Below are positions 8,929-63,576 of a stretch of DNA of 64,000 bases, in pieces. Position numbers and translations under genes: made by a program. The stretch's first letter is position 1. Each line of letters opens with the position of its first letter. Below the pieces are notes generated by a model. It was given only the letters and a program-made list of their open reading frames with translations, did not search any database and had not been told where the DNA came from. Source of the stretch: Haliotis cracherodii (Eukaryota); assembly GCF_022045235.1 (NCBI RefSeq), contig NW_027266265.1, forward strand, positions 29,450,001 to 29,514,000. The letters run 5' to 3'.

Positions 8929-11900
8929 ATGAAATATCTGCTACTACTGGCGATGTGTGTGTACGTTGTCGGGGCCAGAGCCAGAGACAGAAGCTTAAAC
9001 TTCAAACAACGGACATTTCTGATGGCACTCGATGAAAGGAAGCTGACCAGGGACCTCCGATCGTGTTGGTTGGACAGCACTGGTCATTGCTGTTCCAACC
9101 ACATCGCCGGCTGCCGTTACTACAGAAGATACCAAAAGAAATACAGGTCCAAGAACAGGTCAAGCAAAACACGTGAGTATGGAGCGTTGTGTGGACAGAC
9201 ACGGACCAAAATCTAAGAATTGTTTGTTTGTTGTTTAACGCCGCACACAATAAGACAATCCAGTTATTGACATCATGAGCATCAATTTACGCAATTGGGA
9301 TACGATGACATGCATCAACCAAGTCAGCGAGCCTGACCACCCGATCCCGTTGGTGTCATCCTACGACAAGCATAGCCGCCTCCTTGGGTTGTTGAAGACC
9401 ACCTCTACCCCAGATCTTCAAGGGGCCGATAACTGAATACCGGCAAGGGAATGAATGTTATTTTATGTCTCAGTCATCAATATTCCAGCTTTATCACGGT
9501 GGCATCTGGACCATCTGGGATTGTCGACCAGTGAATGATTGCACGTTTAACAACCCAGGGTATGATGGCCCACAATCAGCCAGGTCACACATTGTCATGG
9601 ATTATTGCCCGTATTTTCAGTCAATGGTTTTCCTAGTCCAGGGTCGTTGCAATTTCTCGTAACATCAATCACCTGTATGTCTGTTCCATACTCGATTATT
9701 AACATAGGTGGACATGTTTTAACAAAGTTTACAAAAAACAGACGAACATACGTATCGTCTGATCCACATCATTAGTAGTGATATAGAACTTTGTTACAGT
9801 AACAAAAATGTTCTGATGTATAGAACTTTACCTGATCAGTTAGATCAAGCCTGCTGGTACAGTATTTATTTTCCCCCGTCAAATTTGGAAGCATTGGTAC
9901 ATATTTCAACTGGCTGGAGAAGCAACTTAACATTATATATGACGTTGGCATAAGTTTGAGTGAAACATGTGAACACAGTATTTTTCGCTACTGTAATTGA
10001 CTGTTTGGGTTTTGAGAGTTGTTTGGTTCAATAACTAACGCGTTCATGTTTCGTTTCAGGAAATAACATCTTCTTTTTCAATACTATGCCTTATTATCCT
10101 GGCAACTACTGGTACCATTCTTGCAACGTACAGTGTCTCTGTACCTCATACCACGCATCGTGTTCACATGCTACGACTGCTGCCGCTACTACAACCACAA
10201 CAACAACGACTACTACAAGTACAACCACCACTACTACAACAACGACCACAACGACAACCACCACACCAACTACAACTACAACCACAACGACTACTACCAC
10301 CACTACAACAACAACGGCTGCAGCTACGACAGCTGCGACTACAACGGCTGCGACTACGACGTCTGCGACCACTACATCTGCTACAACAACATCTGCTACA
10401 ACAACATCTGCTACAACAACATCTGCAACTACAACATCTGCAACTACAACATCTGCAACTACAACATCTGCAACTACAACATCTGCAACTACACCAACGA
10501 CATCCACTACTCCTACGACATCAACAACGGCAACCACATCCACTACGCCAACCACATCAACCACAGCGACGACGGTGGCAACAGCCGTGAGAACAAGATG
10601 TACGTACACTGTATACTTTCAATCCTATAGTTAAAGCTCAATGTCAAATGAAAGCATTAAACACTGACCCAGTGATTCACCTCTCTAATGTACAAAGTAG
10701 GTTCTTTCGGTCCTGCCAGGGTCTGCTTTCGTGGATTACAGAATTATCCGGATAATGAGCCACGATCTTCAGTATGGGTTTCATCAAAGGTATTAAACTC
10801 TGAACCGCTGTGGCAAGTCCTTGGGCTTAAAGCAGCGTTGAAGACAACCTTTCAATAGAGGTGCCAGTTTTCTAGAATACATTTTTGGTTGCTTATTGTC
10901 TATTCATTTTCATTCTTAGACTGTCCACGGGGAGTAACAACCGTGTCCAACATTGTCAGGATCATGAACGGACGACCCGTGAACAACTGCACAACATATC
11001 CCGGTGTTGTCACTCTAAAATCACCAAGAGGCGTCACATTGTGTTCTGGTATAGTCACATCAAGCACTACAGTCTCAATCCCCAACAACTGTGCCCAGCT
11101 TCTCATTGAACCGTAAGTGATAAACACATCTACATCTCTTTGAAAAACTCTCATATGTATCTGAAATAATGTCCTTTTATGCCTGTATCACAAACAGCTT
11201 TAGGCACCGTTAAATGCTTAGATTATGTATGACAAGATCAGCAAATAACCAATTCCATACAGCAACTGTTCTGTCAGCTTAAATTGTAGGCCGGACATTT
11301 TCTTCAATAGTACCAAGAGCAAAACGACCAGGAAAAGAAAATATAATCAATAAATTCAGTACATGAAAATCGGTCAGGAAATCACAGCTTCATCTAAAAT
11401 CACAATAATGAATACTTGTACCCATTTGTTTATACTACCGAACAGGCAATAATCTATGGAAACATTTCTTGGCCAGAATCGTCCAAATAATATGTAATCA
11501 GTTTGGCGCATCATGAAAGATTATTTCTACTAGTTATATAGTATTTTGCATTTGGCTCTTGTGATCCTGCACTACAGATCTATGTTCAACTTATGCATAC
11601 CTTCACTGTGCAGTATGCTGGGGTGTCCGTATGTTCTACCTAAATGTCACCTCGTGACATCGACATCCTGATTAGAATACTAGGTTTTCAGCAACCCATG
11701 CTTGCCGTAAAAGTCGACTATCCTTGTTCTAAGAGGCAACTAACGAGATCGTGTTCCACACTCGATTATTTACAGACCGCCGTCATGTAGCTAAGATATT
11801 TCTAATGGTGGCTTTAAACAACAAACAAACCAAACAATTATGCAGTATGCACATCTTACATGATATCTCATAGGCAGGTTTGCAAATGATGTACAAAGTA

Positions 11901-14060
11901 AGTATCCAACCTGTTTTAATGACAATGAATACATACCTCATAGACCCATGAAGAGCCGGGGTAGAATAGGTCTTCAGCAACTCATGTCTTGTCGTAAAAG
12001 GCGACTATTCTTGTCGTAAAAGGCAACTAACGGGATCGGGTGGTCAGGCTCGCTGATTTGGTTGATGCATGTCATCGTATCCCAATTGCGTTTTTTCGAT
12101 GCTCATAATGTCAGTCACTTGATTGTCTGGCCCAGACTCAGTTATTTGGAGACCGCCGTCATATAGCTGGGATATATAGTGCGGCGGTAAACAACAAACT
12201 AACAACAAAAGAAAGAAAAACATTGCAATGTCTCTGTTTCAGACTAGTGTTGACTGATCCATCAAGTGGACGCCCCTTAGAGAGAGTCCAAGCTCTAAGT
12301 GGTGAGTTCACGTGGAGTTTGCTTATGCTTTGGAAATACTGTGCTTATGATATAGACGGAACTGTATAATGGACTCTTGATGCCTTATGATTCAAGGAAA
12401 TATGTCTGTCGTTTAATTTCCAACTGAATCTCAATTAACGTCTTTAAGTGGAATTTAGAAGTTGGTGTGATGAACAAGGGATATAGTTCTATGGATATAC
12501 AACTTTATTGTATAATTGCAGTCATTGTAACAAGGTAGTTCTTTATCAATAGAACTATTCCTTGAATATCTCAATTATCTCTTTAACGACATGTGTAGTA
12601 ATGTCAAATTAGCACAAGAGTCTATCCCAAACTCTACGAGCGTGAGATCGTACATAAACTTTCGTTCAAAGAAACATTAAGCACTAGACGATTGACCATG
12701 TGTTTATGGTGTTGTGAGCATTATCATGACGTGGATGTTGTAAATTGGATATATATTCCTGTATTAGTTTTCTGAAGAGACTGCAATGCACCCAACTGTT
12801 ATTATTCAACACAGACTTGCTAGAGTCGTTGTGCTGAAATCGTCTTTGTTTGGACCCAGGGCCAGGATTGATGAATGACCAGTAATTATAACTCAAGCGC
12901 ATTGCTACCTTAAATGAAGTATGATTTTCCTTTTAAGAATCTCAGCTTGAAAGTCTACGTCCTGGTGGGCCCTATGAAATAACACTAAATGAGCCGCTGT
13001 CCGCCGACACCTGTCCTGGAATAGCGTGCACGTACGAGAACAGAATGCTGAACCAACTAGACATCAACAGCTGTGTTGTAGCCGCGGGTGGATACAACAG
13101 CAATAGTGGTATGTTGTATCTTTACAAGGGCGGAGTGAGTGAGTGTGTTGGATTTAACGTCGCTTTAACATAATTACAGTTATATCACGGCGTTTCAGCT
13201 TTGAGGAAACCCCAAAGAGGATCATTTGGTATTGTGGTTATACCCATGAGTAAGGACATAGAGTAAGGATCGGCGTATCCTTACATGGTTGAGGGACAGT
13301 AATGTCGGCGCTTGGACCACCAAGCCACCATCGCTTGTTGCAGTGATGGATCAAGATTGATATATGTCTCTCCTAATTACCAAGGAATTGCTTTATGTTT
13401 CCTGTAGAAATTTGTTATTTGTGTTTGAATGTTTTCAGGCAATGGGCCAGCCTCTTTCTCCTACATGAATGTGTCAAATCTGCAGCCTACAGAAGATTGC
13501 GCTGCTTTCATCAGGTCGTCTGACCAGTCAGTTCTCTTCAACCCTGCTATCGTGTATAACTGTTTCTTCGGCGCTGGCTCATCCACCTGTGCAGTGAGTT
13601 GTGATTAATATTTTAACGTCAACCTGATGTTATTTGATCGTCTCTCTCACGAAAATAGCAGACAATAATATGACAAAACATTGCATGTTAGCCTTGTTGA
13701 TATAAAGAAGATATATAAGAATTAACAAATGCACGTGTGGGGCAAGTAAGGTTGCAATGTGTTACGATATTGATTTTAGAGCTTGAAACGACTCGCACAA
13801 TGATGTGTTGTGTTTTCACACACAATACAGTTCTTTACGTCTCTATGTGGAGTTTATCTAAATATCATTATCTTTATTGTCAGGGTGACTCAGGCGGTGG
13901 TGTTATGTGTCCGCTGTCTTCTGGAGAGATGGTGGTGATTGGACAAGTGGAGAACATTCCGTGTGAAAGCATTGGTGTCATTGGACTGTACGACATCGGG
14001 CAGTCTGGAGAATCCCTCCGGGTGCTGAGGACCCGAAGGAAGGATATAGTGCTTGGTTGA
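8929..14060 (+). CDS. SPH-1: secreted Cys/Tyr-rich module + Thr mucin stalk + non-catalytic trypsin-like domain (512 aa)
   Basis: join(8929-9172,10060-10599,10920-11112,12243-12301,12938-13108,13439-13593,13884-14060) = 1539 nt, open, all GT-AG, phases 1,1,2,1,1,0. Signal MKYLLLLAMCVYVVGA; RDLR|SCWLDSTGHCC; VR|IMNG; CSGIVTSSTTVSIPNNC (His57 to Asn); GIAC; STCA-GDSGGGVMC; ends RRKDIVLG*. Confidence 0.9.
9220..9425 (-). mobile_element. SINE-like family A
   Basis: Reverse-complement match with an internal deletion. Confidence 0.75.
11685..12205 (+). mobile_element. Two SINE-like family A copies (11685-11830 deleted; 11942-12205 near full)
   Basis: cccatgaagagccggggtagaataggtcttcagcaac.. through gcggcggtaaacaacaaac. 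Confidence 0.8.
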
Positions 14061-14385
14061 AGCCAGAAACTAACACATGGCACTAACTTGCCAGACCTTT
14101 CTTACATATTACTTTGGGTAAATCTTCTTGGTTCGGTGCATGTCCCCTTCCAAATAGTCCACAGATCTTCGTAGCTCGTTTTCGAACGAATATGTTGTTT
14201 GGGAGAGACTTGTTTTATGATTTATTGTTACATATTTTGATTGATTAAATGTTGTTTTCGTTATGTATGTTTATAACGTTTAAATATATATATGTGTTGT
14301 TTAATCAATAAAACATATAATGTCAAAAACTGAATTTGTGTCATTACTGGTCGCCGTCATATAGCTCGAATATTGATGAAATGTA

Positions 14386-14524
14386 NNNNNNNNNNNNNNN
14401 NNNNNNNNNNNNNNNNNNNNNNNNNNNNNNNNNNNNNNNNNNNNNNNNNNNNNNNNNNNNNNNNNNNNNNNNNNNNNNNNNNNNNNNNNNNNNNNNNNNN
14501 NNNNNNNNNNNNNNNNNNNNNNNN
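14386..14524. other. Assembly gap (N run)
   Basis: Run of n. Confidence 0.99.
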
Positions 14525-15432
14525 TATTGAGCAACAATGAAATAAAACTAGGCACGTAACAAACTGTGTATTGCCATAGGTATGATTTGCTCAATAAAAA
14601 GGATTGTCTTCATCTAGTCCCACTCATTGAGGTAAAATCATTCACGCGATGTTTCCTGTATACTTCGTGGTCAAAGGGGAGTAACTCGGTCTTCCTTGGC
14701 GCTCGTGAGACAAGGATTCACGCGTATCACATTTTGTATCATCTACCAAATTATGTCTCTAGAGTTACATAACCGCCTTCCATAGCTGCTCAGGTGTTAC
14801 ACCAACGCTTACTTATGTCATAATTACCACCACACCTGTTCAGTGGAACATCCTTAATCCGGACGCTTTAATCAATACACGCAACGTTACTGTGACAATG
14901 CCTGTGACTATGATTGTGGATTAACGGGTCTTCATTATATAGGTATTTTTCCAAATGCATTTCAAAACTTTTCGATAATGATAAGAAAACTCGGTTAAAG
15001 GTGAGTCCATTGTATGATTGCGACTGTATCATGAGCATGTGTTTATGAATCACTATCGAATAGTGATGATACCAGGTGTTCATGAAAAGGTGAGCATCTC
15101 CTGCCTCACCGGTGGAACTCCTCACAAACATATCAAATTACGGCACACGCGCATATGGTTTACGTTACTAGAATCAATACAACCATCAGATTGAATAACA
15201 TATAGAACAGGGTTAGAGTATTGAGCCACTGACTATTGTTTTCGCCACAGTCAACAATATTTCAGATATACATTTAACCAGTGACTGACAGCATGAACAT
15301 CTATCCATGGCGTCGTATCAGGACTACTTACAATCAGCGAGGTCACAAAGTGCAATCACCCGACCATGAGTCGATAACGGATAACCCGGTATCATATATG
15401 TATCTCTGTTCTATTATGAGACATACCTTGGA

Positions 15433-15869
15433 AGACCGCCTCCGTGGTCTAGAGGTAGAGTGCCGCCCGGAGAGAGGAAGGTCCGGGTTCGATCCCCGGT
15501 CGCGTCATACCAAAATACGTTAAAAGATGGTACTTGTTGTTACCCTGCCTGGCGCTCGACATTAAGGGGCTAAAACAAGGAGTGGTCGGCTATATACTGT
15601 CAGTAAACTGTGTCTGAGTGGGGTATTCAGTTTAAACTGCGGCATGGTATCTNNNNNNNNNNNNNNNNNNNNNNNNNNNNNNNNNNNNNNNNNNNNNNNN
15701 NNNNNNNNNNNNNNNNNNNNNNNNNNNNNNNNNNNNNNNNNNNNNNNNNNNNNNNNNNNNNNNNNNNNNNNNNNNNNNNNNNNNNNNNNNNNNNNNNNNN
15801 NNNNNNNNNNNNGTGCAATGATCGTGGACGTGACGTTAAATCCCATTTCACCTTACCTCACCTCACCTC
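15433..15869 (+). mobile_element. tRNA-derived SINE family C (spans an N gap)
   Basis: A/B boxes (tggtctagagg, ggttcgatcc), (CCTCA)n tail, 12-bp TSD ACATACCTTGGA at 15421 and 15870. Confidence 0.85.
15653..15812. other. Assembly gap (N run)
   Basis: Run of n. Confidence 0.99.
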
Positions 15870-18800
15870 ACATACCTTGGACCTATTCGCTGCCATAGCT
15901 TCCTTTTCAGTCAGATTCAAATCCGTGGCGAATCCAGCGTATTTTTGATAATAGAATGGAGGTAAATCCATGGATAATCGAGGATCAAAGCTTTCATGTA
16001 TGCGTATACATTTTAGAGATATATTCTACTAAAAAACAGAGATATTGTTATGGATCACCCGATTCTTTCATATTACTATACAAATTAATATGTCTTGACA
16101 TGACAAATGAACCATGGAAATATGAAAGAACCGGGTCATCCTTACTGTTTCAGACGAGTATATATCCTGGCATCTGATTGCGCAAAGCCATATCCTTGAG
16201 TACTATCAATATCAGTGTGCAGCTTGTGTCTGTATTTTATGGCGCTTCGGTGCAATTATAACTAACCTGAGTAAACCACTCCATTGTCGACAGCAACGTG
16301 GGATTGGTAATCCCAGTGAGCTAAGACGCAGTAATTATCTGTGCAGAGTTGCGTCCCTTTGTCATGCCAGGATCATTTACTCCTGAGTTTATGATAACGC
16401 CCTAGTTCTGCCATACTGTTCTCTTGGGTTTCACCAAGTGGTAAACGTCGATGTGCTGGGTTAGTTTAGGTCTCCCACATTGAGCTGATACGCCGTGTTA
16501 ATCCTGGAGTCCGTTCTACAAAGCGATCGCAGCTCAAAGGTGATCGTAGCTCCCATACGTTAACATAGACGTAGGTGATTTTAAAACAATCCAAGGATTT
16601 CTGCATAAAAAGTAATTGACTGATTTATGGCCCTATTAATGTATTTTATGTGACCATCACGCCGTCAGCGCATGGCGGTTCATGTCAATTTTCTCAAAAT
16701 AAATAAGGTTAATATCTAAATATATACGATTCAAACGAAGTTAAACAACATCCGATTTTGTTCATATGACTGTGGTTAATCAGTGATGGCTGACTGTCTT
16801 GCAAAACACAGTTTTATAATTGTGGGTGCTCTTTAAACTGTTTTGAGTAGACTAGTATATGGTGTTACAGCTAGAGATGTTACAGCGTGAATGTCATGAT
16901 ACTGTTGTCCGTAAATATCCCTTTTGACATTTGATTTATGATCAACCTGTATTTTGTCTCAAATCTGCATGCATATGTACTTGCATGTCGTTATTTGATA
17001 AACACCGCTGTGAGTGAGGGAGTGTGTTTTTACTCTCTTTTAGCAATATTCCAGCAATGTCACAAGAAATGGGCTTCTCAATGTGTGCCCATGTGGGGAA
17101 TTGGACCTGAGTCCTCGGCGTGATTAGCAAACGCCTTAATCTCTAAGTTATTGTCTCCGTCCCCATGGCTTGGGTAAAACAACACATATGGAAAGACTTG
17201 CTAATATTATCAGTGCGACCACACAGTTAACGTTGATAACATCATGAAGCGCATTGCTATGATAATCTATTACATATGCTAAATCAGCTGTCATTGTAAT
17301 ATGTTATGCACATTTTGCGTATAGTTTTGTCAAATGTATGTATACAGGTGTGTTGCCGGTGAGCCTGCAAACACATGCAAAGGCATGTCAATTGTTCACC
17401 TGAAAATTGGGAATTGCAATTGATCAACATTTTTGTCACAGATGCGTCCAAATTGGAAATGTCCTCCACTTGCCTACCATAAAACATTTAGAAAACCTAA
17501 CTGAGGCCGTGAACCTTCGTTGAAAGAGCATGCCCGATTGTACCATTAAAGTTGTGGAATGTCGACACCAAAAGCTGGAGCTGCTGGGATATTGCTCGAC
17601 ATGAAGGGAAAGTTGACCATTGGAAAGTTAAAGTCATCCCCCTTCTCATACAGTCTTGTGGAGAGTTGTTTGCCATTCTAATCGTTAGGCATAGATTTTG
17701 TTACGTGTCGATTCCCAAATTGAAAGTAACAGTATGTAAACCAAGATAACGATACGTAAAAGAACGTAGGGTGAAACCAACCAACAAACAACAAATGGTG
17801 TATTATTGACAATTGTATTGCAAAATAGAATGGGTTTACAAAACAGCACAAATTACAACACAACAATTACAATGGCAGTACACAATAGAGTGGTTGTCTG
17901 TTCAATGGCAGTATATAATATGATGGTAGTGGTCAGTATTAAATTTAAAAAAACAGTGTTGATAGCAAAATTATTTCACCCAGCGACGACAATGGTCAAG
18001 CTTCCGAGACGGCCTAGCCATGGAATCCGGCTTGATGAGTTATCTTCACACGAAAGTTGGTCTTGATGTAATTAAATATGTTAAGATACGAGAGGCACGC
18101 TCATTTCCCCTTATAAACCGTCTAACTAGCTACTGAAAAGTTCCACACTGTGCTATCACAACATAGAATATTCCGCATGTTTTTGTAACACTCTATCAAA
18201 AAAGTCCACGGTATCCCGGTGCAATGCAAGGAAGGAATATAAACATGGTGCTAGATAAAACTTACAATGGTTTCTATAATCTGTATGTAGTTATTTATTT
18301 GTTATCGTTCAATATACTATATCTTTTATAGTTACATGTATACGCCTCAAGGAGAAATGGAGTGGTTATTTTGGACAAAATGAAGATATGAATTGCGAAA
18401 AAACATTCAGCGGTTTGTAATAGGCACCGTTTAAACACACAATATTACTAACCGAAGGCATTAGTATGTAAAACACTTTTGCTTTGTAGAGTATATGCTA
18501 TTGTAAAACCACTAGTAAGATTCTTGCAGTTCCATTGGTTATTTCGTACCATGTGACGAAACAATACATTTCAATGTGACCCGCAAATCATGTGACTGAC
18601 ACTGACCTCGAATACTGACTCGTCACATGATCAGTATTGGCCGAGTAGAAAATATGATGGCGTCTGGTACTAACAGTTCACGGTATGCAGCTAAGTTACT
18701 TTATCATCCAAAACTGGCTCCCACAGGATATATCGCTTGGATGAGATCAAGCGATATCTACACTGTAGATATCGCTGCAATGAAATTACATCACAATGCT

Positions 18801-20358: not shown

Positions 20359-20486
20359 CAGTAAACTCAAGTTATAACGAACACGCTTATAACGAACTGA
20401 CGGTTATAACAAACTTACTTTTTTGGTCCCTGTTATAACGAACTAACAGTAGTAGTCCCTGAGTTCGTTATGAACGTAGTTTTCTG
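20359..20486. mobile_element. Same MITE family
   Basis: TA-cagtaaact..gttataacgaac ... gttcgttatgaacgtagttttctg-TA. Confidence 0.75.
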
Positions 20487-20807: not shown

Positions 20808-21100
20808 GGCAAGACATGTAAATCACTGACCTGTTTGGTTGAAACTTACAAGACATGTAAATCACTGAGCTGTTTGGTTGAAACTTACAAGACATGTAAA
20901 TCACTGAGTGGTTTGGTTGAAACTTACAAGACATGTAAATCACTGAACTGTTTGGTTGAAACTTACAAGACATGTACATCACTGACCTGTTTGGTTGAAA
21001 CTTACAAGACATGTACATCACTGACCTGTTTGGTTGAAACTTACAAGACATGTAAATCACTGAGCTGTTTGGTTGAAACTTACAAGACATGTCAGTCACT
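20808..21100. repeat. 39-bp tandem repeat, about 7.5 copies
   Basis: Unit tgtttggttgaaacttacaagacatgtaaatcactgagc, contiguous with no spacers. Confidence 0.92.
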
Positions 21101-21270
21101 GGGCACCTTTGCTTTTGGCATGTAGTTTTATGTAGTGTTACACTGATTTTCATTTCCTCATTTAAAAAGTATGGTTTCGAATGTGACTCAAGTTCAAATA
21201 AGAGAATGAACTTAAAGTACATACCAATGTATTTTAAGAATAGCATGAATAAACTAACCTTTTCGTACTA

Positions 21271-37400: not shown

Positions 37401-39879
37401 TCATTATTATTATTCTTTAACATTGATATGCATAGCGATACTATTTTAGGCTTGAACTACAAGACCCAACCACTGGCACCGTCATTGAAACTCTACCTGT
37501 TATTGACAGTAAGTGAACGATTTCCTTTGCTCGAGTAACTAAATCTTCATTAATATCTGGAATATCCACGAACTATGAAACAAAGTAATGGCGACACATA
37601 ATCAAGAGATCTATTGAGATGAGAGCACAACAACTTTGATGCATAGCTCTGAATGCTCTGGGGGCCAAGTTAATATATTACTCTGGTATGATTGAAATAT
37701 GAAAACCACTTACAATATAAAGAAGGGTATCGGATGCTACTGATTAAATCCCTCTCTCGTCAGACGAAGACCGGGGGCGGGGGGTCACGGGTGGCCCAGT
37801 CGCCTAAGGCGCCGCGATTCGCTGTGCAGAGTTGCGTCCCTTGGGCACGCCAGAAACCTATGATTGTGGGTTCGAATCCCGGTTCGCCCCGATTATGTTT
37901 CTAGGTTTGTCAGCACTATACCCGTGCTCGTGGGTTTCACCGAAGTGGTAGACGTCTGAGACCTGCATCACTTGGGGCTTTCCTCCCACATTAAGCTGAC
38001 ATGCCGTAATATAACTGGAATAGTGTTAAAAGCGGCGTTAAACCCAACTCACTCACTCGCTCACTCACTCACGAAGACAAAGGTTGGATTCCCTATATGG
38101 TACATTTATAATGTCTACCGCAGTGAAATGGTAGGACTAGGGTTAAAATGGGCACAATATCTTATATTTATATCGATATGTCTTGCCACGTTTCCTAGCC
38201 ACAACCGTCGCAACAGGAGGTCCGTTCACAATCACTCTGTCCACGCCCATCAGCTCCACGGGTTGCCCTGGCGTTGCATGCATCTATGACGCTGCCATGG
38301 TCGACAACATTGACCTCACAAGCTGCGTCGTTGTCGGTGCTGGACATGACGATATTGCAGGTATATCATACAGGCTTTAGAAAGCATATGACAAAATTAG
38401 GAAGAAACTGTTAATTCCTATGTTCTTTCAATCTGCTTTGTGCTCCTCGGTAAACATTGATCGACGTTTATTTCAGCTGCTTTATTTTTCACGCAATGAA
38501 TATGATATTTAAAGTAGATGAATGTACGTGTGTTTAGAATTGCGGGTGTTATTTAGTATTTGATGCCCAGAAACTTTATTTAGACCCGACGGCGTTAGTC
38601 GGATGTTTCAAATGTTAAGATTTCGTCATTGTGTTGACTAGCACGCTTTTACAAATTGGGATGGAGAAAAATATTCATTCGCATGAAAATTCCGAAAGAC
38701 TTACTGGATCCGGTCTCGTTTAAGAAGTTTTTCAAGGTTGCAGCACACATTCAATCATTGTTAAGCATGTGTTATTTTTCAGGCACGAACCCCGCAACAT
38801 TATCCTTCTACACCGTGCCAAGTCTCCAGCCCACGGCCGATTGTCCCGCCCTCCTGCAGGCGTCTGGTCAAGCCGTCCTCTTTGACACTGGTCTTACGTA
38901 CAACTGTTTCTTCAATACAGGATCTTCTACCTGTGGTGTACGTATCTATAACACAACGCACTTTCTCACATTACCTAGGACCCAATGCATTAAGAAGGGG
39001 GTAGCCTTGTGGTTCTGACACTTGTGCCAAAGTTTTCTGGTAGACATGTTCTCGTGTGTTTTCAGATGTACGTGTTTGCAAACGAGTGCCGCTCACCTTT
39101 TCATGAACACGAGTGATCATCACTACTTGATAGTGATTCATAAATTCATGCTAATGATATAGTCTGAATCGTACAATGGACTGTACTTTCAGCAGAGATT
39201 TCAGGTCGCCTCTAAGGTCTAGGGGTAGAGCGTCTGCCCTGAGAGCGGCATACCCGGGGTTCGATCCCCGGTCTCGTCGTATCACAATACATCAAAAGAT
39301 GGTACTTGTTGTTACCCTGCCTGGTGCTCGGCATTAGGGGGCTGAAACAAGCCTTAGGACTGGTTGGCTTGGGGTCAGTATACTGTGTCTAAATGTGTAA
39401 TTGATGCGGCATGGTATCTCAGTGACCTAGCACTATAAAATCGACATTAGTCCGGACTAGTACAAGCAGCCACAGACGCACGTGCAAGCACGTCGCTATT
39501 TAAGTGCCATGACCTTGGACGCAACGTTAAACCCGATTTCACCTCTTATGATTATTTAAATGGATGTCGTCGCTTTTGTTTACTAACCTTACCTAATGTA
39601 TTATTTAAGGGTGATTCTGGAGCTCCTATCATGTGTCCCCTTACCACCGGAGAAATTGTCGTCATCGGTCAGGCTGAGAACATGCCCTGCGACGGCACCG
39701 ACATCGTTGGCTTCTACAATCTGGAGGCTGCGGCTGTCAGAGTGGGCCGTAGAGAGAAAGGGTCTATACTGTTGGGCTATCAGCCGTTCAGGAGATTTAA
39801 CAAACATAAGATTGTCCTTGGCACCGGCAGAAAAGCAACCCGAGTTATTCTTGGTAAACCCAAGATTACTCTTGGCTAG
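34462..39879 (+). CDS. SPH-3: close paralog of SPH-2 with Ser195 retained and His57 to Asn (485 aa)
   Basis: join(34462-34672,35161-35565,36037-36232,37450-37508,38199-38360,38783-38937,39610-39879) = 1458 nt, open. Exon sizes 211/405/196/59/162/155/270 match SPH-2 except the Thr exon. GDSGAPIMC. Confidence 0.9.
36660..37372 (-). mobile_element. 3' fragment of an RLE-type (R4/Dong-like) non-LTR retrotransposon in an SPH-3 intron
   Basis: ETVQHIISGCPAL knuckle remnant and KILWN..NKPDLV..IIDFSVP..KY, a PD-(D/E)xK restriction-like endonuclease; absent from the equivalent SPH-2 intron. Confidence 0.85.
37772..38070 (+). mobile_element. tRNA-derived SINE family D
   Basis: gtggcccagtcg..ggttcgaatcc head, gcggcgttaaa + (ACTC)n tail, TSD ACGAAGAC at 37764 and 38071. 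Confidence 0.85.
39203..39545 (+). mobile_element. SINE family C in the last SPH-3 intron
   Basis: Absent at the paralogous SPH-2 site. Further copies at 40395-40665 and 51560-51740(-). Confidence 0.8.
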
Positions 39880-42404: not shown

Positions 42405-42511
42405 TGTGAATTAGTTAAATATCGTTTAAATTGTGAATTAGTTAAATATCGTTTAAATTGTGAATTAGTTAAATATCGTTTAAATTGTGAATTAGTTAAA
42501 TATCGTTTAAA
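42405..42511. repeat. 27-bp tandem repeat x4
   Basis: tgtgaattagttaaatatcgtttaaat. Confidence 0.9.
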
Positions 42512-42574
42512 AAGTAAATGATTAAACGTGAAATTACATTGCTAAAAGGTCCTTAACTGTTTTCATAATAAAAA

Positions 42575-43090: not shown

Positions 43091-44230
43091 GCCTAAGTCC
43101 TCTGCAATTCCATTGTATTATATTGTGAGAGCAACTCATCGAGGCTCAATTGGAGAACGTAAACGGGGGGAGGGTCCTCGTAATGACAGAGATGACAGAG
43201 ATGGGGACACTTCCATATCAAGAGGCTCAAAGGTATTATGAACCTCAACAGAATGGTTGAAGGCGCCTTCAAATGTTTGAGTGCCCTCGATTCCTTTTTT
43301 TCGTAACTGCATTCTCTCCTTCCTTGATAAAAGTAGATGTTGCGGCTCAGGTTCAGGATCAGGCTCAGGTTTAGGCTCAGACTCAGGCTCTATTACTGGT
43401 GCCTGTGAGTTAGCGATTAATTGTAGATCAGTCTGTTTCAGACGATGGTGATCAGTTTAATTCCTCAGCTATGGAATATAACACTTTTTGGTTGTCTGTT
43501 ACCCAGCAAATGTCTGTCTGAGATGCATGGTCAACTGTTTGCTTGAGAGTGGAAACTGCGTGCGGCGGAGTATGATCTTGATTTTAAAGAGGTTGGTGAT
43601 TGTTCTTTTGCCAATTTCTTTGCATCGGAAAAGGAAATATTGTTCGTATATATGACCTTCATACCTTTTTTTATTCTCTTCCAAAGACTGGACATTGTTT
43701 TGAGGAGGACATGTGCCCACCGTTGCAGTTAGTACATTTGATGTCACCTGTGCAATCAGTGCTGTCGTGATTCTTACCGCAACGGGAGCAGACTGGGGAG
43801 TTATGAGAGCACCTGGCTTCATGTCCAAACTGTTGACAACTGAAACATCGGAGTGGATTTGGTATATACACATCCACTCCGATGTTGAAATAACCAGTTT
43901 TAAATTAAGTTGGAAGCTTGGAAAGGGCAAATGTAAATAGATATGTGTTGGTAGTGACAACGCTATCATGATCTTTTATTGTGAATTGTTTCACAGATGT
44001 TACTCATTTATCTCAAGATCCCCTTCTGAAATGTCAAACAGACACTTGGCTCGGTCGCGGAAAATGCCCCTGCATGAATTCAGAGATTTATGAACTGAGA
44101 CAGTAATTACAGTATCGGCAAAACGATGTGCATTCAGCAAATGTTTTGGATTGTTGCCTCTATGCACATTCTATGAAGAGAGAACCAGACCGGAGACGTG
44201 TGTCGTTTTGGACGTCACTACAATGTCTTC
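43060..44230 (-). mobile_element. Decayed LINE ORF1 (gag-like zinc knuckles)
   Basis: YIPNPLRCFSCQQFGH..CSRCGKNH..CTNCNGGH..C: CCHC knuckles typical of I/Jockey-group ORF1; frameshifted. Confidence 0.8.
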
Positions 44231-44237
44231 TACAACT

Positions 44238-44490
44238 AGAGTGAGTGAGTTGGGTTAAACGCCGCTTTTAACAGTATTCCAGTTATATCACGGCGTGACA
44301 GCTTAATGTGGGAGGAAAGCCCAAAGTGATGCAGGTCTCAGACGTTTACCACTTCGGTGAACCCATGAGCACGGGTATGGTGCTGACAAACCTAGAAACA
44401 TAATTGGGGCGAACCGGGATTCGAACCCCAAATCATAGGGTTTTGGCATGCCCAAGGGACGCAACTCTGCACAGCGAATCGCGGCGCGTT
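44238..44490 (-). mobile_element. SINE family D
   Basis: Reverse complement of 37810-38060. Older copies at 13132-13330(-) and 16305-16505. Confidence 0.8.
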
Positions 44491-44689
44491 AGAGTGCGTG
44501 TAGTCAATTTGGAACGAAATTGTCTCCAGCTGCTAGGTGTATTTTGCATAATTGTTCTACGAGCTTATGCTTTTGATATCCTTAAGCGTTTTAAGTTATC
44601 TTCAGTCGGATGTTTATTGAATACACTTTCCGACATTATCCTGTTTTGTTTCTAGCTTTTTTTTTTCAATCATCATTATACCATGGTGT

Positions 44690-46215
44690 ACTAACATGTG
44701 GAGTTGTATAGGTATTAGAGATAACGTCCGTGGCAATGTTTAAGAAGGTCATGATCATTCATAAAATGATTAGCTTTCAATTTAGTACTGCAAAAGAAAC
44801 TAAACAAAAGCCTCACTACCTTGGAAAATTGCTTTTGTAAATGAAACTATCCACAAAGGGAGATATAGCTTTACATACGGTAGGAAAGTGATCAGTGCGG
44901 CACAAATCACCATGAACTGACCATGAACTGAAAAAAGGTCATTAAAGAGTGTCAGAAATGGGCAAATCCAACGCTGAGAACATACTCCTGGATTGAAGTA
45001 TGTGTTACTTCCATCATTAAGAAGGCATAGACTATGCTTATCAAGTAATTCTTCTGTCACATTTCCTATATCTTTATGATCGGATGAACCCAATACGATT
45101 TGTGACAATTCAAGTCTCCCATAATCAAAAACACTTTGGGATGCTGGTCAATGAGATCATCCAGATCCCTGAGTTGAAGAGCAGATGATGGATGTATATA
45201 TGAGGAACACAGAGTTATTGTTGTAATATACCAAGTTATACGCACTGCAACAGCCTGAAGGTATTTAGTGCAATAGGGCTTTGAGGAGATCCCTATTTCA
45301 ATGGTATATCTGTGCCAACATACGCCTTACTTTCAGTAACCCTTACAAACGAACTATATGTATCCTACTGATGTAAATTAAATAGCTGACCATCTCATGT
45401 TTCCTGGAGACTAAACGGTTCTTATCTTCGGCTAGAAGGTTCATTTCTTCAAAATTAGCTATAATTCCTCGGCAGTTACATTGTATGATATTATGATTCA
45501 TGGAGGGTGAACATGTGATCTACCTCTACCCACTTTCTTTTCAGAAGTGTGGCCATGTACATGTATGTAACTTTTGGTGGGTTTTAGGGCAGTGACATAA
45601 GATATTTTAGTTGGTCCTGCAGAGGAATTAGCAGGAACTTTCTTTCGTGCATCAATGTAGCCAATAGTTTGCTCAGACTTAACCCGTTACACAGCCGACT
45701 CAAATTCGAACACAGGACGCTCAGGGGAATATGCCATGTGTGCTTCTGTGCAGTGAGGACATTTGAGGGTAGCACAACAAGCAAAGCCTTCATTTCTATT
45801 TCAATGTTGAGCATGACCAAACTGTTGGCATTTGAAACAGTTTTCACATGGTTTTCACAAATCAATCCTCATAACTTCTTTGAGAGGCATTTAGAAAATG
45901 GAGTACTGAGTACTGAGTTGTTCATCCATAAATCATTTCCTTACTTTAGTCAATTCTCATAGCAAAGCAACCAACCTGGAAGGTTAGGTGAAGCAAACGT
46001 GATCAAGAGATAAGTGTTGGAAGGTAAAATGTTCCCATCTTCCTTAAACGTGAAACGTTTTGCTTCAATAACACCTTGATCTCTTAGCTCAGAAACAATT
46101 TCATCAACTGAGAGGTCATTTAAACTACGATCACGATCACGGACGATCCCCTTACTGAAGTTGAGTGATTTATGAGCATAACTTTCGATCTTGATATCTG
46201 CCGGTTTAGTTGATT
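44690..46215 (-). mobile_element. Decayed I-group LINE remnant (ORF1 end + APE endonuclease)
   Basis: MNHNIIQCNCRGI at about 45500, LQAVAV and LLNDGSNTY EN motifs, plus degenerate knuckles upstream; many stops. Confidence 0.75.
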
Positions 46216-47717
46216 CAATTCAATTCGGTTTATTTCGTAAGTGTAGGCCATCGGCCAATAGTTACATTTATATTACAATGGACGTGGTGTACACAGATCT
46301 TATTGTTCTGACAATAATGTACTACGAAGTGACATCGCTTGACAGATATAAAATATAGCAAAACGTTTAATTACTTTACAATCAGTTTTAGACATAGTGA
46401 TAACAATTTCTTTGTTTTGTCGGATATTCATAACATTTCTGTGGCAAGTGATCCACCCGTGTTATAACCGGAGCAAACTAACAAGACATGATACTCGTGT
46501 AGTTCATTCAAAAAGGGTTGCAGATTGTTTATGAGTTTTGCATTCCACCAGCAGGGCGCCACACTTCAGTTTTGTAACATCAGACATTCCCTGCTTTAAC
46601 TTTTATTGCTTTTTTTCTAGTAGAACCGCCTTCTGGGCATCGGAATCGAGAATCAGTTAAATTTTGAAATTTCTCAAAATTCCTCAAAATTCAAGAAAGA
46701 AAGAAAATGAAAAAAAAATCAAAAGAGTGAGTGAGTATGGTTTTACGACACATTCTACGCCGGATCCTAATCTAGATAAACACAGCAATTAAAGCATTAT
46801 GGCTCGTAAACTTCAACACAGATACCTTCAGAGCTGATATCGTCGGTTATAATTGTAGTGCGAAAAGACAGGTGTTTTAAGTCGCATTATTGAAATCAGC
46901 TATTTGCAAGACCGACACATTGTGTTATGGTCTATTTTATATTCAGAAAGAGAATAATTGCAAATGTCTCACGACTATTTATAGTTACATACATAAAACT
47001 GAGTCGCAAAAGCAATTTACCTTTCAATTGAGTTGATGTTTTATTTTCAATTGAAAATATGTTAAGTTAGCGATATTTCATCCCAAAGAAATAAACTGGC
47101 GCTTAGTCAGCACTCAAAGAATAATTGTACGTGTTTTTTTCAAAATATAATTTGATTTAAAACTTTTAAAAAACATTTTGAAACATTCCATTATACAAAA
47201 CTGCTGATGGGTATCTTAGACATCTTTGAAACTCAATAAATTTGCATTTCAAACATTGTAGAGGTCAAGTGAGTACAAATTCATTTCTTACACAAGTCTT
47301 CATTGAACCAAATTATTTTAACACAAAATTACCCATCCACAGATTACTTTTTACAGACGGTTACAGGAATCAGTGATGGTTAAATACACATAATCAAATT
47401 TAACAAAGGTTCTTTCAAATTTCAATTATTTAAAACAAACTCGGGATACTATCTTTTGCCCCAAAGTTTGTAAAATGTTTCGAACCTTGAAATGCATGAT
47501 TAAGCATCCCCACTTGTGCTGTAGGAAATTTTCCAGGTGTCGTAGCTTGTGTGGAAACGCTTCTGTAAAGCCCATCTTTGTATGGCAAACATTGGTATAT
47601 TCTATGATATGTACTTCTACTGCTGGTTCAACATCGAAAACAAACCCTGTAGTGTTTGAATCACTGTTTAAATAGAAAAAAATCCCACGGCAGTTCTTCC
47701 ACCGAAATCCATCTCAG

Positions 47718-47725
47718 TATAAATA
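47718..47725 (+). promoter_or_regulatory. TATA box of SPH-4
   Basis: TATAAATA 63 bp upstream of the ATG at 47781; identical at 63514-63521 before SPH-5. Confidence 0.6.
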
Positions 47726-47780
47726 CCCCGTCTCCCTCCTGTTTGAACGCCAGCGCCTTGACAGCTCCACACACAGCAGA

Positions 47781-50700
47781 ATGAATTGCCTACCCATACT
47801 AGTCTGCCTATCACTGGCAGTGATGGTGAGTAGCGAATATCTCTCCATGGAGTATCAGTCAGAGAATTATGAAAGTGCTATGAGGGCTGAAAGTCAAGCT
47901 TCACTGCGACACTACAGGCCCCGCTACAGCTACGTCGACTACTCGGGAGACTGCTGCCGTAACGGTAACAACAACTGTGGATGGGCTCGATATTGTAAGT
48001 AATCAGTGCAATTATACATATATTATTACATACAATTCACGAAGTTTGTATAACGAGGTAACTGCTAAAGCCATGCTGATTTTTTCACCCCAAACAGGCC
48101 CCAATGCCAATAGTTTCTTTTCGCGAACACTTGGTATTATCACTGTTTGATAGTGGTTAAAGAACACATGCTCATGGTACAGTCGCAATCGTATAATGGA
48201 CTCGTTCAAGAAGGTGTTTATTGCTGTTAATTACGAATTAGTTTAACTCAGTGGCAAGAACATTTTGTGGTGAATCAAAGCAACGGACTAGTAATTCTCC
48301 TAGTATCACTCTAGAACACTCAAGAGAGCGAAAGGTCTGTGGTTCGATTACCAAGATATGATACTTGTTGTCACTCCGCGTAATACAGAAATTTCAAATA
48401 TTAAATGACAGGAATCAAAAACGGAATAACACCTTCAAATGTGCAAAATTGAGCTTCATCGACACTGTAAATGAAAATGTCTGTCCGAAATAGATGTACT
48501 GTGAACTGTGACACATGCATATTGCCAAGCTCAAATGTTTTGACGTCGTAATACTTTGCATGACGGCATATCTGTCAATCACAACTGAATAGGCCTCGTT
48601 AGCGTAAGCAGAGAAGTAATCAAACACATAATTTATGTTTTTTCGCTAATAAATATTAATCAAGTGCAATATTGAATGAATGATCTATTCATGTCGCCAT
48701 CTCAAATGCCATTTTCCCAAGTGGTGATACGCAACGAAAAGACCCATAAAGATCTGGCGAAGAATAGGTCTTCAGCAACCCATACTTGCCGTAAAATGCG
48801 ACTATGCTTGTCGTAAGAGGCGACTAACGGGATAGGGTGGTCAGGCTCGCTGACTTGGTTGATGCATGTCATCGATCCCAAATGCGTGGATTGATGCTCA
48901 TGATATCAAACACTGGATTGTCTGGTCCAGACTCGATTAATTACAGACCGCCGTCATAAAGCTGGAATATTGCTGAGTGCGGCGTTACACAACAAACCAA
49001 CAAACCATAAAAAGGCGTAAAAGGCAAACAAGTGATGGAAAATGTGTGAAGGCATCACGGAAATTCTGTAATAATACCACGTGTTTGCGAAAACGGTTAG
49101 CACATGTTTTATGTCCTGTTCTACCAATAGCACCCTCTCAATATGGTGCCAGTGAGTTAGGTGGTTCAACACTCCATGACTGTGAAGGTCATTGCATGGG
49201 AGAGAACAGCGCATCATGTTGCCAAGCCAGGGGCAAATTACTTTAAATGTTAAGCTGTTCACCATACACGTTCTGAAATGACTTAACCAGGACTTTGATG
49301 GTGATTCTTTGATTGAGAAGCTTATTTGTAATCTTTCTTTCCGTGAAAAATAACCCGATTCAAACAGATTGCCTCACACAGTCTCATTCGTTTTACAGTT
49401 GTCAGTCCAGTCGAATCCCTCGACGCACAAAACACACATTTTGCCGACAAACCCGCGTGTGAATATCGCGCGTCTTGTTTGTTTCAGATGCTTCCTCCTA
49501 CTATGGATCCCGGTACTCCAGGAGAGGCTGCTACTATTATAGACCACAAAGCTCTGTAGTATACTGCGGATGTGTGGGAGTACAACAATGTTCTCCAACA
49601 ACTGTTGCCGCTACAACCACTACTACAACAGCTGTTCCCACGACTACAACAGCTGCTCCCACTACTACAACAGCTGCACCCACTACCACTACCACTCCTA
49701 CAACTACTACTGCAGCTCCAACAACAACAGCCACAACACGATGTTAGTTAACATAAACATTTTATTGTTCTTTATTTATGTACCACCAGAACAACCGTGG
49801 AGATTCATGGGTAGAATTGTTTCCAGTAACCCTAATGTGCTGCTTACGGACCATCGTTATGATATGGATCGATGTTCATGCTTTCAGTCACTGGTTTGTG
49901 CTGCTTATCAGTTCAACCACTCCTGTGCCTGAATATTTACAGACATGATATAGCTGGAATATTGCTGATGGCGGCGTCAAGAACATACTCGCTGACTATT
50001 ATGTGTACAATTTCAGTTTGTCCAGCTGAGGCCTCAACCGCCCCAACCGCCACCACGAGGCTACTAAACGGCCTTGCTATCGCTGGATGCGATGAGTTCC
50101 CAGGGCTTGTAGCCATCCAAATCGGTGGAGCAACTGTATGCACTGGAGTCGTCACCAGTGGCACGACCCTGTCTATACCCAGCAACTGTGCTGCTTTTGC
50201 AAACGGAGCAGAGTAAGCTGGCTTTATGATACTCATTACTATTAAGATATTATTATTAATAGGAGGTAGTGTTTTATTGGTGTAATTGTTGGTAATAATA
50301 TCCTGCTCAATAGTACCATTTAGCATTACGCAAATTGCCAGAAGGGGAATCACAGTGGCATCCTCCTGATCTGCGCCAACAGATAAGGAGGTACCGAACC
50401 TTAGGCACCAAGATCAGTGGGGAGTCGAATAACTTATACTTGTGATGCAGGCACGACATTTCACATGCTAGGTTCGTTTATTTGACAATTTATCAAAATG
50501 GACAATGTTGCATTGCAAATACTTGATTACCTATCGTTATTGTCGATCTTCCCAAAAGATCCTCTCAAGCTCTACAATTTCGTCCCTATAGTTATAGTTA
50601 AGGATCATGTATGTCACAGCACAAATATGTGCCAGGTGTTTTTACGTATATAAATCCAATAGTACAACATGTATCATTGAAATGCAAACACTACAGGCGT

Positions 50701-52685
50701 CGTCGTAATTGTACCCTTGTTCGACGAGCCCCATTGGACGGTGGGACAGCCTACTGGTTAAAAGACAGGGTTTGATTCCCCACATGGGTACAATGTCTGA
50801 AGCCATCTTCTAGCTACCAACTCACTCACTCACAAAGAAAAGACAGCACTAAAATGTCACATTGTCCTCACGGGTAGTTTCCTTCGTTCACCCAGCTCTG
50901 ATCTGGTTTCGGACACATTTTGAAAAAGCAGCCAATTCAACTGTATATTTTTCTATTCGTAGTGTTGTGGCTCAGGATGGAACCGTTATCGCAACAGGCA
51001 TCACAGGTAAGAGACAGGTCACTTCACAATGATGTGTGTTTAGGTTTTCGTTTAAACACATTTTATTCACATGAAAAGAACATGATTTATCGCAAGTACG
51101 CTGTTCCTCTCCCCAGTATTTATATACATGATGGGTTGTACTTTTGTACATGTTGTGGTAGAATTTAGAAGAAGGGGAACAAATATTTTGTTTAAAAATG
51201 TACGTCTTACCTATTTTACCATGGACAGAAATATAAAGTTCCGCATTTCCAGATTGTATCAACTCAATGTACAGGTATCCTTATCTTTGGAAATTTCAGC
51301 AACCGCAGGAGGAGTAGGTGGGCCTGTTGAAGTGACCTTACCTACAGCAGTGACGTCAAACAGCTGCCCCGGCATCGCCTGTGTCTATTCCAGCACTATG
51401 GCAAGCGACATCCTCCTGGATACCTGCAAGGTTGCTGCTGCAGGATTCTCTGATAATGCCGGTGAGCAGCGATCTCAGAAGTGTGGAAGATGCGTAGTGA
51501 CGCATGTGTAAAAGTGGGCGTCAATGATGCAAGAAACGATCTCGGAATTTTAGACAGTGGGGTGAAGTGAAATGGGGTATAACATCGTGTTCAAGATTAT
51601 TTCACTTGCATGCACGTGTGCGTGTGGCTGTTTGTACTAGTCCGGATGTATGCCTGTGTTGTGCTGCTAGCACTCTGAGATAGAATGCCGCAGTTTAAGA
51701 TTGATTGCTTAGGCACATTATACTGATTCCTTGTTTTATCCCCACGGGTAAATATTTTGTAAGTTAGAGCTTCACCTCTGGAAGAAAGAGCCCCAAACTA
51801 TCTGGAAGACACAACACTTCATTGTCCCAAGTGATTATTTGTTTTAAACAATCTCATCTCCCCAACCCTCCAATCCCACCTACCCTGGAATATCATATGA
51901 TCAACCTCGCACGTGTCTTCTGCATCACAGGTACTTCAACTCCTGCCTTCGAGTACCTGGATATCCCCAGTCTGCAGCCAACGGACACGTGTCAAGCACT
52001 TCTTTCAGCCAGCCCCACTTCTGCTGTCTTTGACTTCACGAACACTGCCATCACATATAACTGCTTCATTAGTCCCAGTGGCTCTACATGTGCGGTATGT
52101 ATATTGTTTCCCTTATTTCCAGGCTGAATGGTTTCATAGTGAAGCCTCTATCTCGAAATGTTACTACCTTCTACACCTAAAACCCTTTAATTCTCATCGA
52201 AGGGGAGGGGCGGTTGGGTAGATCATTTGTTATTTTAAATGCGTAGTGTATTTGTATTTGTGTCTTTTGTTTACGTTACCACACATGTGACATCGGTGAC
52301 ATCCCGTTCACTCACACATCTGTGCCAGAAGACTATGAATTTGTTAGAGTAGGCTATAAGAACTCAATTGCAATAACAAGCATTGGCACGAAAGGTAAAG
52401 TTCCAATCAATTCTGAATACCAGGATTTGAATATAAAGGTCCGAACAAACTCTGCGATGCAATACGCTCAAAAATTCAACGTTAATACATAATTAGTGGT
52501 GTCGTTACTTCCAGGGCGACTTCGGTGGACCAATATCTTGCAGTCTAACGACTGGAGAACAGGTGGTTATTGGGCAGATCGAGAATGGTGACTGCACGGC
52601 CGGTTCTGCTGTAGGATTCTACAACCTTGAAGCAGCGAGTGTTCGTGTTCTTGCAACAAGCAGGGACCAAATCCAGCTCGGATAA
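47781..52685 (+). CDS. SPH-4: divergent paralog with Ser195 to Phe and a 21-nt microexon (408 aa)
   Basis: join(47781-47994,49131-49151,49488-49742,50017-50212,50963-51006,51300-51461,51931-52094,52515-52685) = 1227 nt, open, GT-AG. Signal MNCLPILVCLSLAVMVSS; RHYRPR..DYSGDCCRNGNNNC; TR|LLNG; CTGVVTSGTTLSIPSNC; STCA-GDFGGPISC; ends RDQIQLG*. Confidence 0.88.
48740..49005 (+). mobile_element. SINE-like family A, full length
   Basis: Matches the family consensus end to end. Further partial copies at about 21880-22035, 41838-41905 and 49800-49990. Confidence 0.82.
50385..50505 (-). mobile_element. Short remnant of the RLE-type element
   Basis: ggaggtaccgaaccttaggcac..ggggagtcg..gacatttc matches 36924-37000. 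Confidence 0.55.
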
Positions 52686-60075: not shown

Positions 60076-60164
60076 CCAATTGTAATAAAGAAGTTGTTCA
60101 TCCATAGAACTCGTCTTACTTTATCACACCAACTTCTAATTGCCACTGAAAGAAGTCATGGTGT

Positions 60165-63521: not shown

Positions 63522-63576
63522 CCCCGTCTCCCTCCTGTTTGAACGCCAGAGCCTTGACAGCTCCACACACAGCAGA

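Follow-up and report, generated by a model that had tools for sequence, protein, structure and literature searches.

A tandem array of mucin-stalked S1 pseudoproteases in the abalone Haliotis cracherodii retains a putative zymogen activation site

Loss of catalysis with retention of the activation site is not a new principle for chymotrypsin-like (S1) domains. It is established in vertebrates and insects, and the idea of a regulated switch is already established for other pseudoproteases. HGF and haptoglobin keep Asp194, and the SMIPP-S proteins are parasite complement inhibitors. In HGF and MSP, a cut at the canonical site is reported to turn a dead S1 protein into a disulfide-linked heterodimer (PMC5344233, PMC13194640); HGF is cut outside the cell, at R494↓V495 (PMC5344233; the arrow marks a cut here and below). 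Haptoglobin is described as cut after PVQR↓ in the endoplasmic reticulum (ER), with two disulfide-held chains and a need of the cut for high-affinity binding (PMC5856381). The enzyme named there is C1r-LP, which acts in the ER (PMC2119846, PMC5856381). Drosophila cSPH35 is reported to be cut at R81 and at K128↓ITGA and to form oligomers (PMC10540698). Ile16-Asp194 energetics and classes of pseudoproteases are treated in PMC13194640. It describes SMIPP-S as expanded dead S1 paralogs with remodelled active-site loops and PRSS23/PRSS35 as secreted S1 pseudoproteases processed at RRKR, named there as a furin-type site; PRSS23 keeps the triad and has lost Ile16-Asp194. Here, a 64,000-nucleotide stretch of the Haliotis cracherodii genome (C2:29450001-29514000, the window) is analysed, with genome searches spanning the 1.18-Gb assembly. 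It carries four genes, g1-g4, for dead S1 domains that stand behind a Thr-rich stalk and keep a putative activation site.

The initial annotation of the window had proposed that catalysis is lost and the activation switch kept, and the residues it relied on are present with one deviation. The TAAHC motif is replaced by IPNNC in g1, VPNNC in g2 and g3 and IPSNC in g4. Residue 57 is therefore Asn in 4/4 window genes (at 11087, 26575, 36207 and 50184), and His occurs at this position in 0/12 family sequences. Residue 102 is Gly in 4/4 (12967, 27659, 38219 and 51320); the pattern GGP[YFV]E[IV]TL given for the former DIAL motif fits g1 (GGPYEITL), g2 (GGPFEITL) and g4 (GGPVEVTL), whereas g3 reads GGPFTITL. 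Within the family, Asp102 is found only in g7 and Glu in g8. Residue 195 varies as annotated (GDSGG, GDAGA, GDSGA and GDFGG in g1-g4), Ser being kept in 2/4 and Phe195 recurring in the g4 orthologs. The Asp194-Ser195, Asp194-Ala195, Asp194-Ser195 and Asp194-Phe195 codons of g1-g4 lie at 13887-13892, 29067-29072, 39613-39618 and 52518-52523, respectively. Residue 189 is Ser, so S1 Asp189 is lost, and residues 214-216 read ENI, ENM, ENM and ENG. Because of Ser189 and the ENx sequence, neither catalysis nor self-activation is expected. Self-activation was ruled out, since Ser occupies position 189 and the triad is gone.

The putative activation site itself is intact in all four genes. An Arg is followed by a hydrophobic N-terminus (R↓IMNG in g1, R↓ILGG in g2 and g3, R↓LLNG in g4) and preceded at 12-13 residues by a Cys (Cys1), whose expected partner Cys122 stands in a G[IV]AC motif at 13027, 27719, 38279 and 51380. 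In g1 the site spans 10922-10963 (Cys1 10922-10924, linker, Arg15 10958-10960, Ile16 10961-10963) and in g2 26407-26448 (Cys1 26407-26409, Arg15 26443-26445, Ile16 26446-26448). The g3 site lies at 36039-36080 (Cys1 36039-36041, Arg15 36075-36077, Ile16 36078-36080) and that of g4 at 50019-50063 (Cys1 50019-50021, Arg15 50058-50060, Leu16 50061-50063). Arg at P1, a hydrophobic residue 16 and Gly19 are in register in 12/12 family sequences, with 13-14 residues between residue 16 and Pro28. Residue 16 is Ile, Leu or Met, residue 17 is hydrophobic and Gly19 is invariant in 7/7 lineages. Asp194 is likewise present in 12/12 sequences, as are both Cys1 and Cys122, which presumably form a disulfide bond. 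Arg15 is encoded by AGG, AGA, CGC and CGT, and the surrounding linker is variable. The sites of g1-g6 are single Arg residues in Thr-rich linkers, with no further Lys or Arg in g2, g4 and g6. Convertase-type (dibasic or furin-type) sites are found in 3/7 lineages: GRKR↓ in g7, TAKR↓ in g8 and RRRR↓ in the limpet ortholog.

How much this retention means depends on the lineages compared. The g2 and g3 domains are 96% identical, so that the window holds three independent lineages (g1, g2 and g4), not four. Among these, 44/191 columns other than Cys, Gly and Pro are invariant (23%), and a given pair of columns would both be invariant with a probability of about 0.05. Retention of Arg15 and Asp194 in the four window genes alone is weak evidence. 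When g5-g8 and the limpet ortholog are included, seven lineages with 23-62% identity can be compared. Here 24/197 columns are invariant, and 8/153 when Cys, Gly and Pro are set aside, Arg15 and Asp194 among them. Of 20 columns with a charged majority, three are invariant: Arg15, Asp194 and a Glu near 206. Residue 195, by comparison, takes six states (S, A, F, T, S, Q, G) and residue 57 takes four (N, N, N, N, D, Q, S). For such a pair the probability falls to about 0.002, a rough figure as columns are not independent. This is strong evidence that retention goes well beyond chance: Arg15 and Asp194 are fixed across the 12 sequences, in contrast to the freely changing residue 195. Both are invariant over seven lineages while residue 195 varies, so selection very probably acts to keep a cut at Arg15. 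More telling than Asp194 by itself is the combination of an exposed Arg, hydrophobic residues 16-17 in register and Gly19.

A model of the g4 domain was predicted with AlphaFold2 from a 35-row alignment that included exons of active neighbouring proteases. Its mean predicted local distance difference test score (pLDDT) is 62.5, with values of 74-95 in the first barrel. It matches protein C (Z 18.1, root-mean-square deviation 3.1, 201 residues), model residues 172-387 corresponding to 16-235 (VIA-align). Haptoglobin 103-337 (Z 17.5), HGF 495-713 (Z 16.2) and scabies mite SMIPP-S (Z 15.8) also match, and Foldseek finds chymotrypsin with an expectation value (E) of 1.2e-8. Leu172 of g4, which directly follows the Arg, is placed on residue 16 in protein C, residue 103 in haptoglobin and residue 495 in HGF. 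The structure-based alignment suggested in the initial annotation puts residue 16 in register with protein C; the numbering of single residues comes from sequence alignment with intact neighbours and PDB sequences, not from coordinates (three misaligned exon-6 rows were excluded from the final alignment with the intact neighbours). Near residue 235 the match to protein C stops; instead of the usual C-terminal helix, the model of g4 ends in low-confidence strands. An earlier fold from a 4-row alignment (pLDDT 41.5, best Foldseek E 4e-3) was uninformative and was set aside. A homodimer prediction for the g4 domain scored 0.00; it was made without an alignment and is evidence neither way.

Sequence profiles agree in part with this fold. 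The H. rubra ortholog narrowly passes the cut-off of the Pfam Trypsin family (PF00089; 21.2 against 20.6 bits) and the limpet protein scores 13.1; the window proteins P0001 and P0005 gave no match, and 0/16 single exons matched any Pfam family. Profile searches reach S1 proteases (chymotrypsin, kallikrein and PPAF-II) with E values of 3e-6 to 4e-5, PPAF-II being the top PDB sequence match of one profile (E 3e-6). In the Atlas comparison, Trypsin clusters rank first (0.97). The Cys pairs 42-58, 136-201, 168-182 and 191-220 are predicted to form bonds, and all eight Cys align in g1-g6; in g7 and g8, Cys 168 and 182 are not aligned. The mature domain of g1-g4 contains 11 Cys: besides the four canonical pairs and Cys122 there are two more, at about 25 and 117, which would form an extra pair. 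The g1-g4 domains are, on the predicted model, members of the chymotrypsin-fold S1A superfamily.

Each of the four proteins starts with a hydrophobic, signal-peptide-like segment (judged by eye). It is followed by a basic head of 90-99 residues (7-8 Cys, 8-16 Tyr, isoelectric point (pI) 8.7-9.6), which has a CC pair close to its beginning, by a stalk of 46-143 residues, 61-78% of them Thr or Ser (g1 78%, g2-g4 61-72%), and by the acidic S1 domain (pI 4.1-4.8). Exon 2 of g1 (10060-10599) encodes the last part of the Tyr/Cys head together with the Thr-rich stalk. The g4 head (47781-49742) has 16 Tyr and 7 Cys, compared with 8 Cys in g1-g3; its odd Cys could form an inter-chain link. Long Thr/Ser-rich domains of mucin type are thus present in the family, and from the sequences secretion is likely and O-glycosylation is predicted. 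No kringle, PAN or CCP family of Pfam was matched before the S1 domain in P0001, P0004 and P0005, in which head and stalk occupy that space, and no clip domain was matched in exon and protein scans. At the C-terminus, g2 (29232-29330) and g3 (39778-39876) carry a basic tail with the repeats K↓IVLG, R↓VILG and K↓ITLG. The terminal I/V-x-L-G motif occurs four times in these tails, three times directly behind Lys or Arg, and a 21-bp tandem duplication is found in the g2 tail (29291-29329). These repeats resemble spare activation N-termini. A single terminal copy ends g1, g4, g5, g6 and the H. rubra protein. The predicted I/V-x-L-G strand would take the place of the usual S1 helix.

All four genes have seven exons, open frames and canonical AG/GT sites on the forward strand. 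Gene g1 (8929-14060, 512 amino acids (aa)) has exons at 8929-9172, 10060-10599, 10920-11112, 12243-12301, 12938-13108, 13439-13593 and 13884-14060, and g2 (24273-29333, 462 aa) at 24273-24483, 25481-25816, 26405-26600, 27129-27187, 27639-27800, 28230-28384 and 29064-29333. The exons of g3 (34462-39879, 485 aa) are 34462-34672, 35161-35565, 36037-36232, 37450-37508, 38199-38360, 38783-38937 and 39610-39879; those of g4 (47781-52685, 401 aa) are 47781-47994, 49488-49742, 50017-50212, 50963-51006, 51300-51461, 51931-52094 and 52515-52685. The models of g2 and g4 match the RefSeq proteins XP_071086317.1 and XP_071086331.1 letter for letter, and g1 and g3 are gene models only. RefSeq labels family proteins as 'uncharacterized', 'mucin-22-like' or 'cell wall protein DAN4-like'. 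The intron check covered g2 and g4: 6/6 introns (GT..AG) of g2 are skipped in one contig of sequencing run X7, and 6/6 introns (GT..AG) of g4 are skipped in sequencing-run contigs. The runs are presumed to be RNA, from related organisms.

The annotated span of 10920-52685 runs from the start of g1 exon 3 to the stop of g4; g1 itself starts at 8929, and the array continues to g5-g8, which lie on the same strand and reach up to 104 kb beyond the window. Only the first exon of g5 (63577-63790, forward strand) falls within it. Over exons 3-7 the frames of g5-g8 are open, the exon-6 acceptor of g7 being a guess. Gene g5 (R↓LLNG, GDFGG) is a recent duplicate of g4 with 98% domain identity; a recent segmental duplication (44682-48152 and 60157-63951, 89-93% identity) bears the 5' ends of both. 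The other motifs are R↓LLGG and GDTGA in g6, RKR↓LVGG, SKDC and TDSGG in g7, and KR↓MVGG, SKQC and FDQGG in g8. Genes g7 (C2:29.554-29.566 Mb) and g8 (29.608-29.618 Mb) encode giant mucins: in each of them a single exon, with at least about 2,100 codons in g7 and at least about 1,400 in g8, encodes TTSA repeats ahead of the dead S1 domain. The ratio of non-synonymous to synonymous change (dN/dS) is 0.34 for g2/g3, 0.52 for g4/g5 (10 changes) and 0.13 for g4/g6 (dS near saturation). Pseudogenes were ruled out by the open frames, dN/dS below 1 and the spliced contigs.

Exon searches of the genome found the family at this locus only (at least 6, at least 2 and at least 6 matches). A search with the whole limpet protein gave 148 matches, swamped by Thr-rich repeats, and revealed g8. 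Orthologs were found in H. rufescens (two), H. rubra and Patella vulgata (RRRR↓MIGG, PSSC, GDGGS). In a profile search of proteins of 463-2000 aa, 0/7,999 scored candidates passed, which is weak evidence; metagenome contigs gave 132 pattern matches, of which 0 were confirmed. In a tree of 30 rows the family forms one clade (99/99), with long branches and the limpet protein inside (100/100 with g1-g6). Omitted from the tree were g3, g5, two H. rufescens near-copies and the loci L050, L051, L053, L056, L058, L061, L064 and L069, the last five because an exon was missing or unparsed. Synonymous sites are saturated between most family lineages, and the limpet-abalone split is Palaeozoic. As judged from these sequences, this is a new family of old, mucin-stalked gastropod S1 pseudoproteases found in abalone and limpet. 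No description of it was found in the open literature by title and opening of the abstract, and abalone mucus and shell proteomes may hold the proteins under other names. Membership in the limpet pedal-mucus set P-vulgata_1-14 was rejected, the domains listed for that set in the cited part of PMC7333891 comprising no trypsin-like domain.

Two groups of S1 genes lie nearby. Seven S1 genes that retain the full triad and Asp189 (L023-L029) are located 185-300 kb upstream at C2:29.154-29.266 Mb. In one of them, L027, the P1 residue is Tyr, and Thr193 (TDSGG) is shared with g7. The nearest three (L027-L029) have, like the family, the additional Cys at about 25 with a partner before Cys122, a pair found in 0/15 parsed first exons of other S1 loci (20 examined, 5 unparsed). 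Position and the shared extra Cys pair suggest local descent from this cluster, which the tree neither shows nor rejects: in its 30 rows it leaves the sister of the family among active proteases unresolved. Three further dead S1 genes, SPH-a, SPH-b and SPH-c (L005-L007), occupy window positions 1-2560 on the reverse strand and continue to about 2.1 kb before the window. They read R↓LAFS and GDFGG (SPH-a), R↓VLNT and GDEGG (SPH-b), and RTRR↓SIGG and DDLGS (SPH-c). Each N-terminus has a C-x3-C...C-x4/5-CC motif that resembles a clip domain. Together with g1-g8, 11 dead S1 genes are present in about 200 kb.

Repetitive sequence was also noted. A non-long-terminal-repeat retrotransposon on the forward strand (56176-59444) has three frames for endonuclease, reverse transcriptase (E 7e-48) and RNase H. 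A GIY-YIG fragment (54661-55176, forward strand; E 0.001, below cut-off) possibly derives from a Penelope-like element. Intron 3 of g3 contains an insert (36656-37275) that is absent from g2 and has a second copy upstream of g3 (33846-34216); it looks like a fragment of a retroelement, and no firm Pfam match was obtained for it. Minisatellites are found at 30336-31287 (27-bp unit, about 35 copies) and 20810-21101 (39-bp unit, 7.5 copies), and another repeat, long and open, is located 6-10 kb ahead of the window. A dispersed repeat of about 260 bp occurs in introns and spacers (894-1121, 9253-9424, 11942-12205, 25130-25396 and 48742-49007) and is abundant, with matches in thousands of sequencing-run contigs.

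The favoured reading of the site, to which about an even chance is given, is routine maturation of a non-catalytic binding domain. The stalked proteins are likely secreted, and a single cut after Arg15 would most likely be a routine step. A proprotein convertase would cut the dibasic sites of g7, g8 and the limpet protein. A trypsin-like enzyme would serve the single-Arg sites of g1-g6; the seven Asp189 neighbours are candidates by specificity only. The new N-terminus would tuck against Asp194 and render the domain binding-competent, and the predicted Cys1-Cys122 disulfide, which fits the odd number of 11 Cys, would hold the cut domain on its glycosylated stalk. The mature domain would then bind non-enzymatically in mucus or another extracellular matrix. 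Several observations weigh against routine maturation followed by insertion. Trp141 is lost in g1-g6 and g8, Gly193 is kept in g1-g6 and replaced by Thr in g7 and Phe in g8, Ser214-Trp215-Gly216 has become ENx, NSx or EEF across the family, and His40 is absent. Because several activation-domain residues are lost, insertion of the N-terminus might fail to order a surface in the way it does in trypsin. The active-like N-terminus of the g4 model is no evidence, active proteases being in the alignment; its second barrel is moderately confident (54-91 in 10-residue blocks) and its last 16 residues are below 50. The profile that led to g7 and g8 contains the Arg15 and Asp194 columns, a possible ascertainment bias, and one non-abalone ortholog only was found. 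Asp194 alone is no indicator of cleavage, because the control L068 (C12:71.92-71.93 Mb), a dead S1 domain with TAAQC and DDSGA, keeps it without an activation site. SPH-c has a furin-type site and yet Ser at position 16, and all three SPH genes keep Asp194.

A reading that differs from routine maturation in the timing of the cut only is clearly the more doubtful one: the proteins would be stored or secreted uncut, and a trypsin-like protease released at wounding, infection or secretion would then cut at Arg15, in a regulated step that triggers binding or polymer or gel assembly. The lone Arg in the Thr-rich linkers of g1-g6, without other Lys or Arg in g2, g4 and g6, would suit such a trigger, as would the exclusion of self-activation, the seven Asp189 proteases on the same contig (three with the extra Cys pair) and the precedents described for HGF (PMC5344233) and cSPH35 (PMC10540698). 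However, gene neighbourhood is no sign of an enzyme-substrate relation, and the single-Arg site of haptoglobin is reported to be cut routinely in the ER (PMC5856381, PMC2119846). The convertase-type sites in three lineages suggest, instead of a trigger, maturation within the secretory pathway. Of the initial annotation, the selective retention of Arg15, hydrophobic 16, Gly19, Asp194 and Cys1-Cys122 after loss of the triad is supported; a regulated trigger, a switch of binding or assembly and a trypsin-like activator for the whole family are conjecture. It is unlikely that the Arg is a mere processing or bait site, which loosens the domain from its stalk or occupies foreign trypsin-like proteases, while Asp194 and Cys191-Gly196 serve folding without an insertion-driven change. 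Survival of Asp194 in L068 and in 3/3 upstream dead genes, one with Ser16, and the erosion of Trp141, Gly193 (g7 and g8) and 214-216 are in line with such a site, but a mere cut does not need the hydrophobic 16-17 and invariant Gly19 in register with Pro28 that insertion needs and that 7/7 lineages keep. Cys1-Cys122 would, moreover, block release.

Low or unusual hydrolase activity of some members, through Ser195 and a substitute base, is very improbable. Ser195 is present in g1, g3 and g7, Asp102 in g7 and Gly193 in g1-g6, but residue 57 is Asn, Asp, Gln or Ser in all members, g2 and g3 differ at 195 (Ala and Ser) at 96% identity, and g4 and its orthologs have Phe195. Equally hard to credit is that the motif merely survives from recent protease ancestors that were active, in proteins that are never cut. 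The 23% of invariant comparable columns would allow this for the window alone; the spread over limpet and abalone at 23-62% identity with mostly saturated synonymous sites and the persistence of Arg15 through four different codons argue against it. A bolder extension of the trigger, gastropod mucins with zymogen-gated polymerisation, is decidedly improbable and is offered as speculation. A neighbouring trypsin-like protease would cut Arg15, the dead domains would interlock with one another or attach to the basic Tyr/Cys heads, and the mucus would set to a gel or glue; the I/V-x-L-G strand at the C-terminus, repeated after basic residues in g2 and g3, could act as an intermolecular strand or as a spare activation peptide working in trans on neighbours that are still uncut. 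If the cut did control mucin assembly, gastropod mucus or adhesive would set under protease control, a design for triggered gels. Apart from this, proteins without characterised names gain a fold and a testable maturation site, and the Arg15/Ile16/Asp194 device can apparently outlast catalysis across the limpet-abalone split.

Among the known systems, haptoglobin resembles the abalone proteins in its dead S1 domain, single-Arg site and two disulfide-held chains (cut and bond being predicted in abalone). It differs in having a CCP domain where the abalone proteins have a Tyr/Cys head and a Thr-rich stalk, and the identity is 11%. HGF and MSP share the dead S1 domain with a canonical-site Arg, which in abalone is known from the sequence. 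The abalone proteins, in contrast, are without N-domain or kringles, have some convertase-type sites and are encoded in a tandem array of eight genes. The insect clip-domain homologs (cSPH35, Manduca SPH1 and PPAF-II) are likewise dead S1 proteins of invertebrates with a Cys-rich N-terminal domain, and are secreted, as the abalone proteins probably are. Their residue 195 is usually Gly, compared with Ser, Ala, Ser and Phe in g1-g4 (Gly is found only in the limpet protein), and the abalone proteins have a long mucin stalk and no detected clip domain. SMIPP-S is alike as an expanded paralog family of dead S1 domains, but is without a stalk and probably arose independently. PRSS23/PRSS35 share the furin-type site in a secreted S1 pseudoprotease, and PRSS23, with its triad kept and Ile16-Asp194 lost, is the mirror case of the abalone family.

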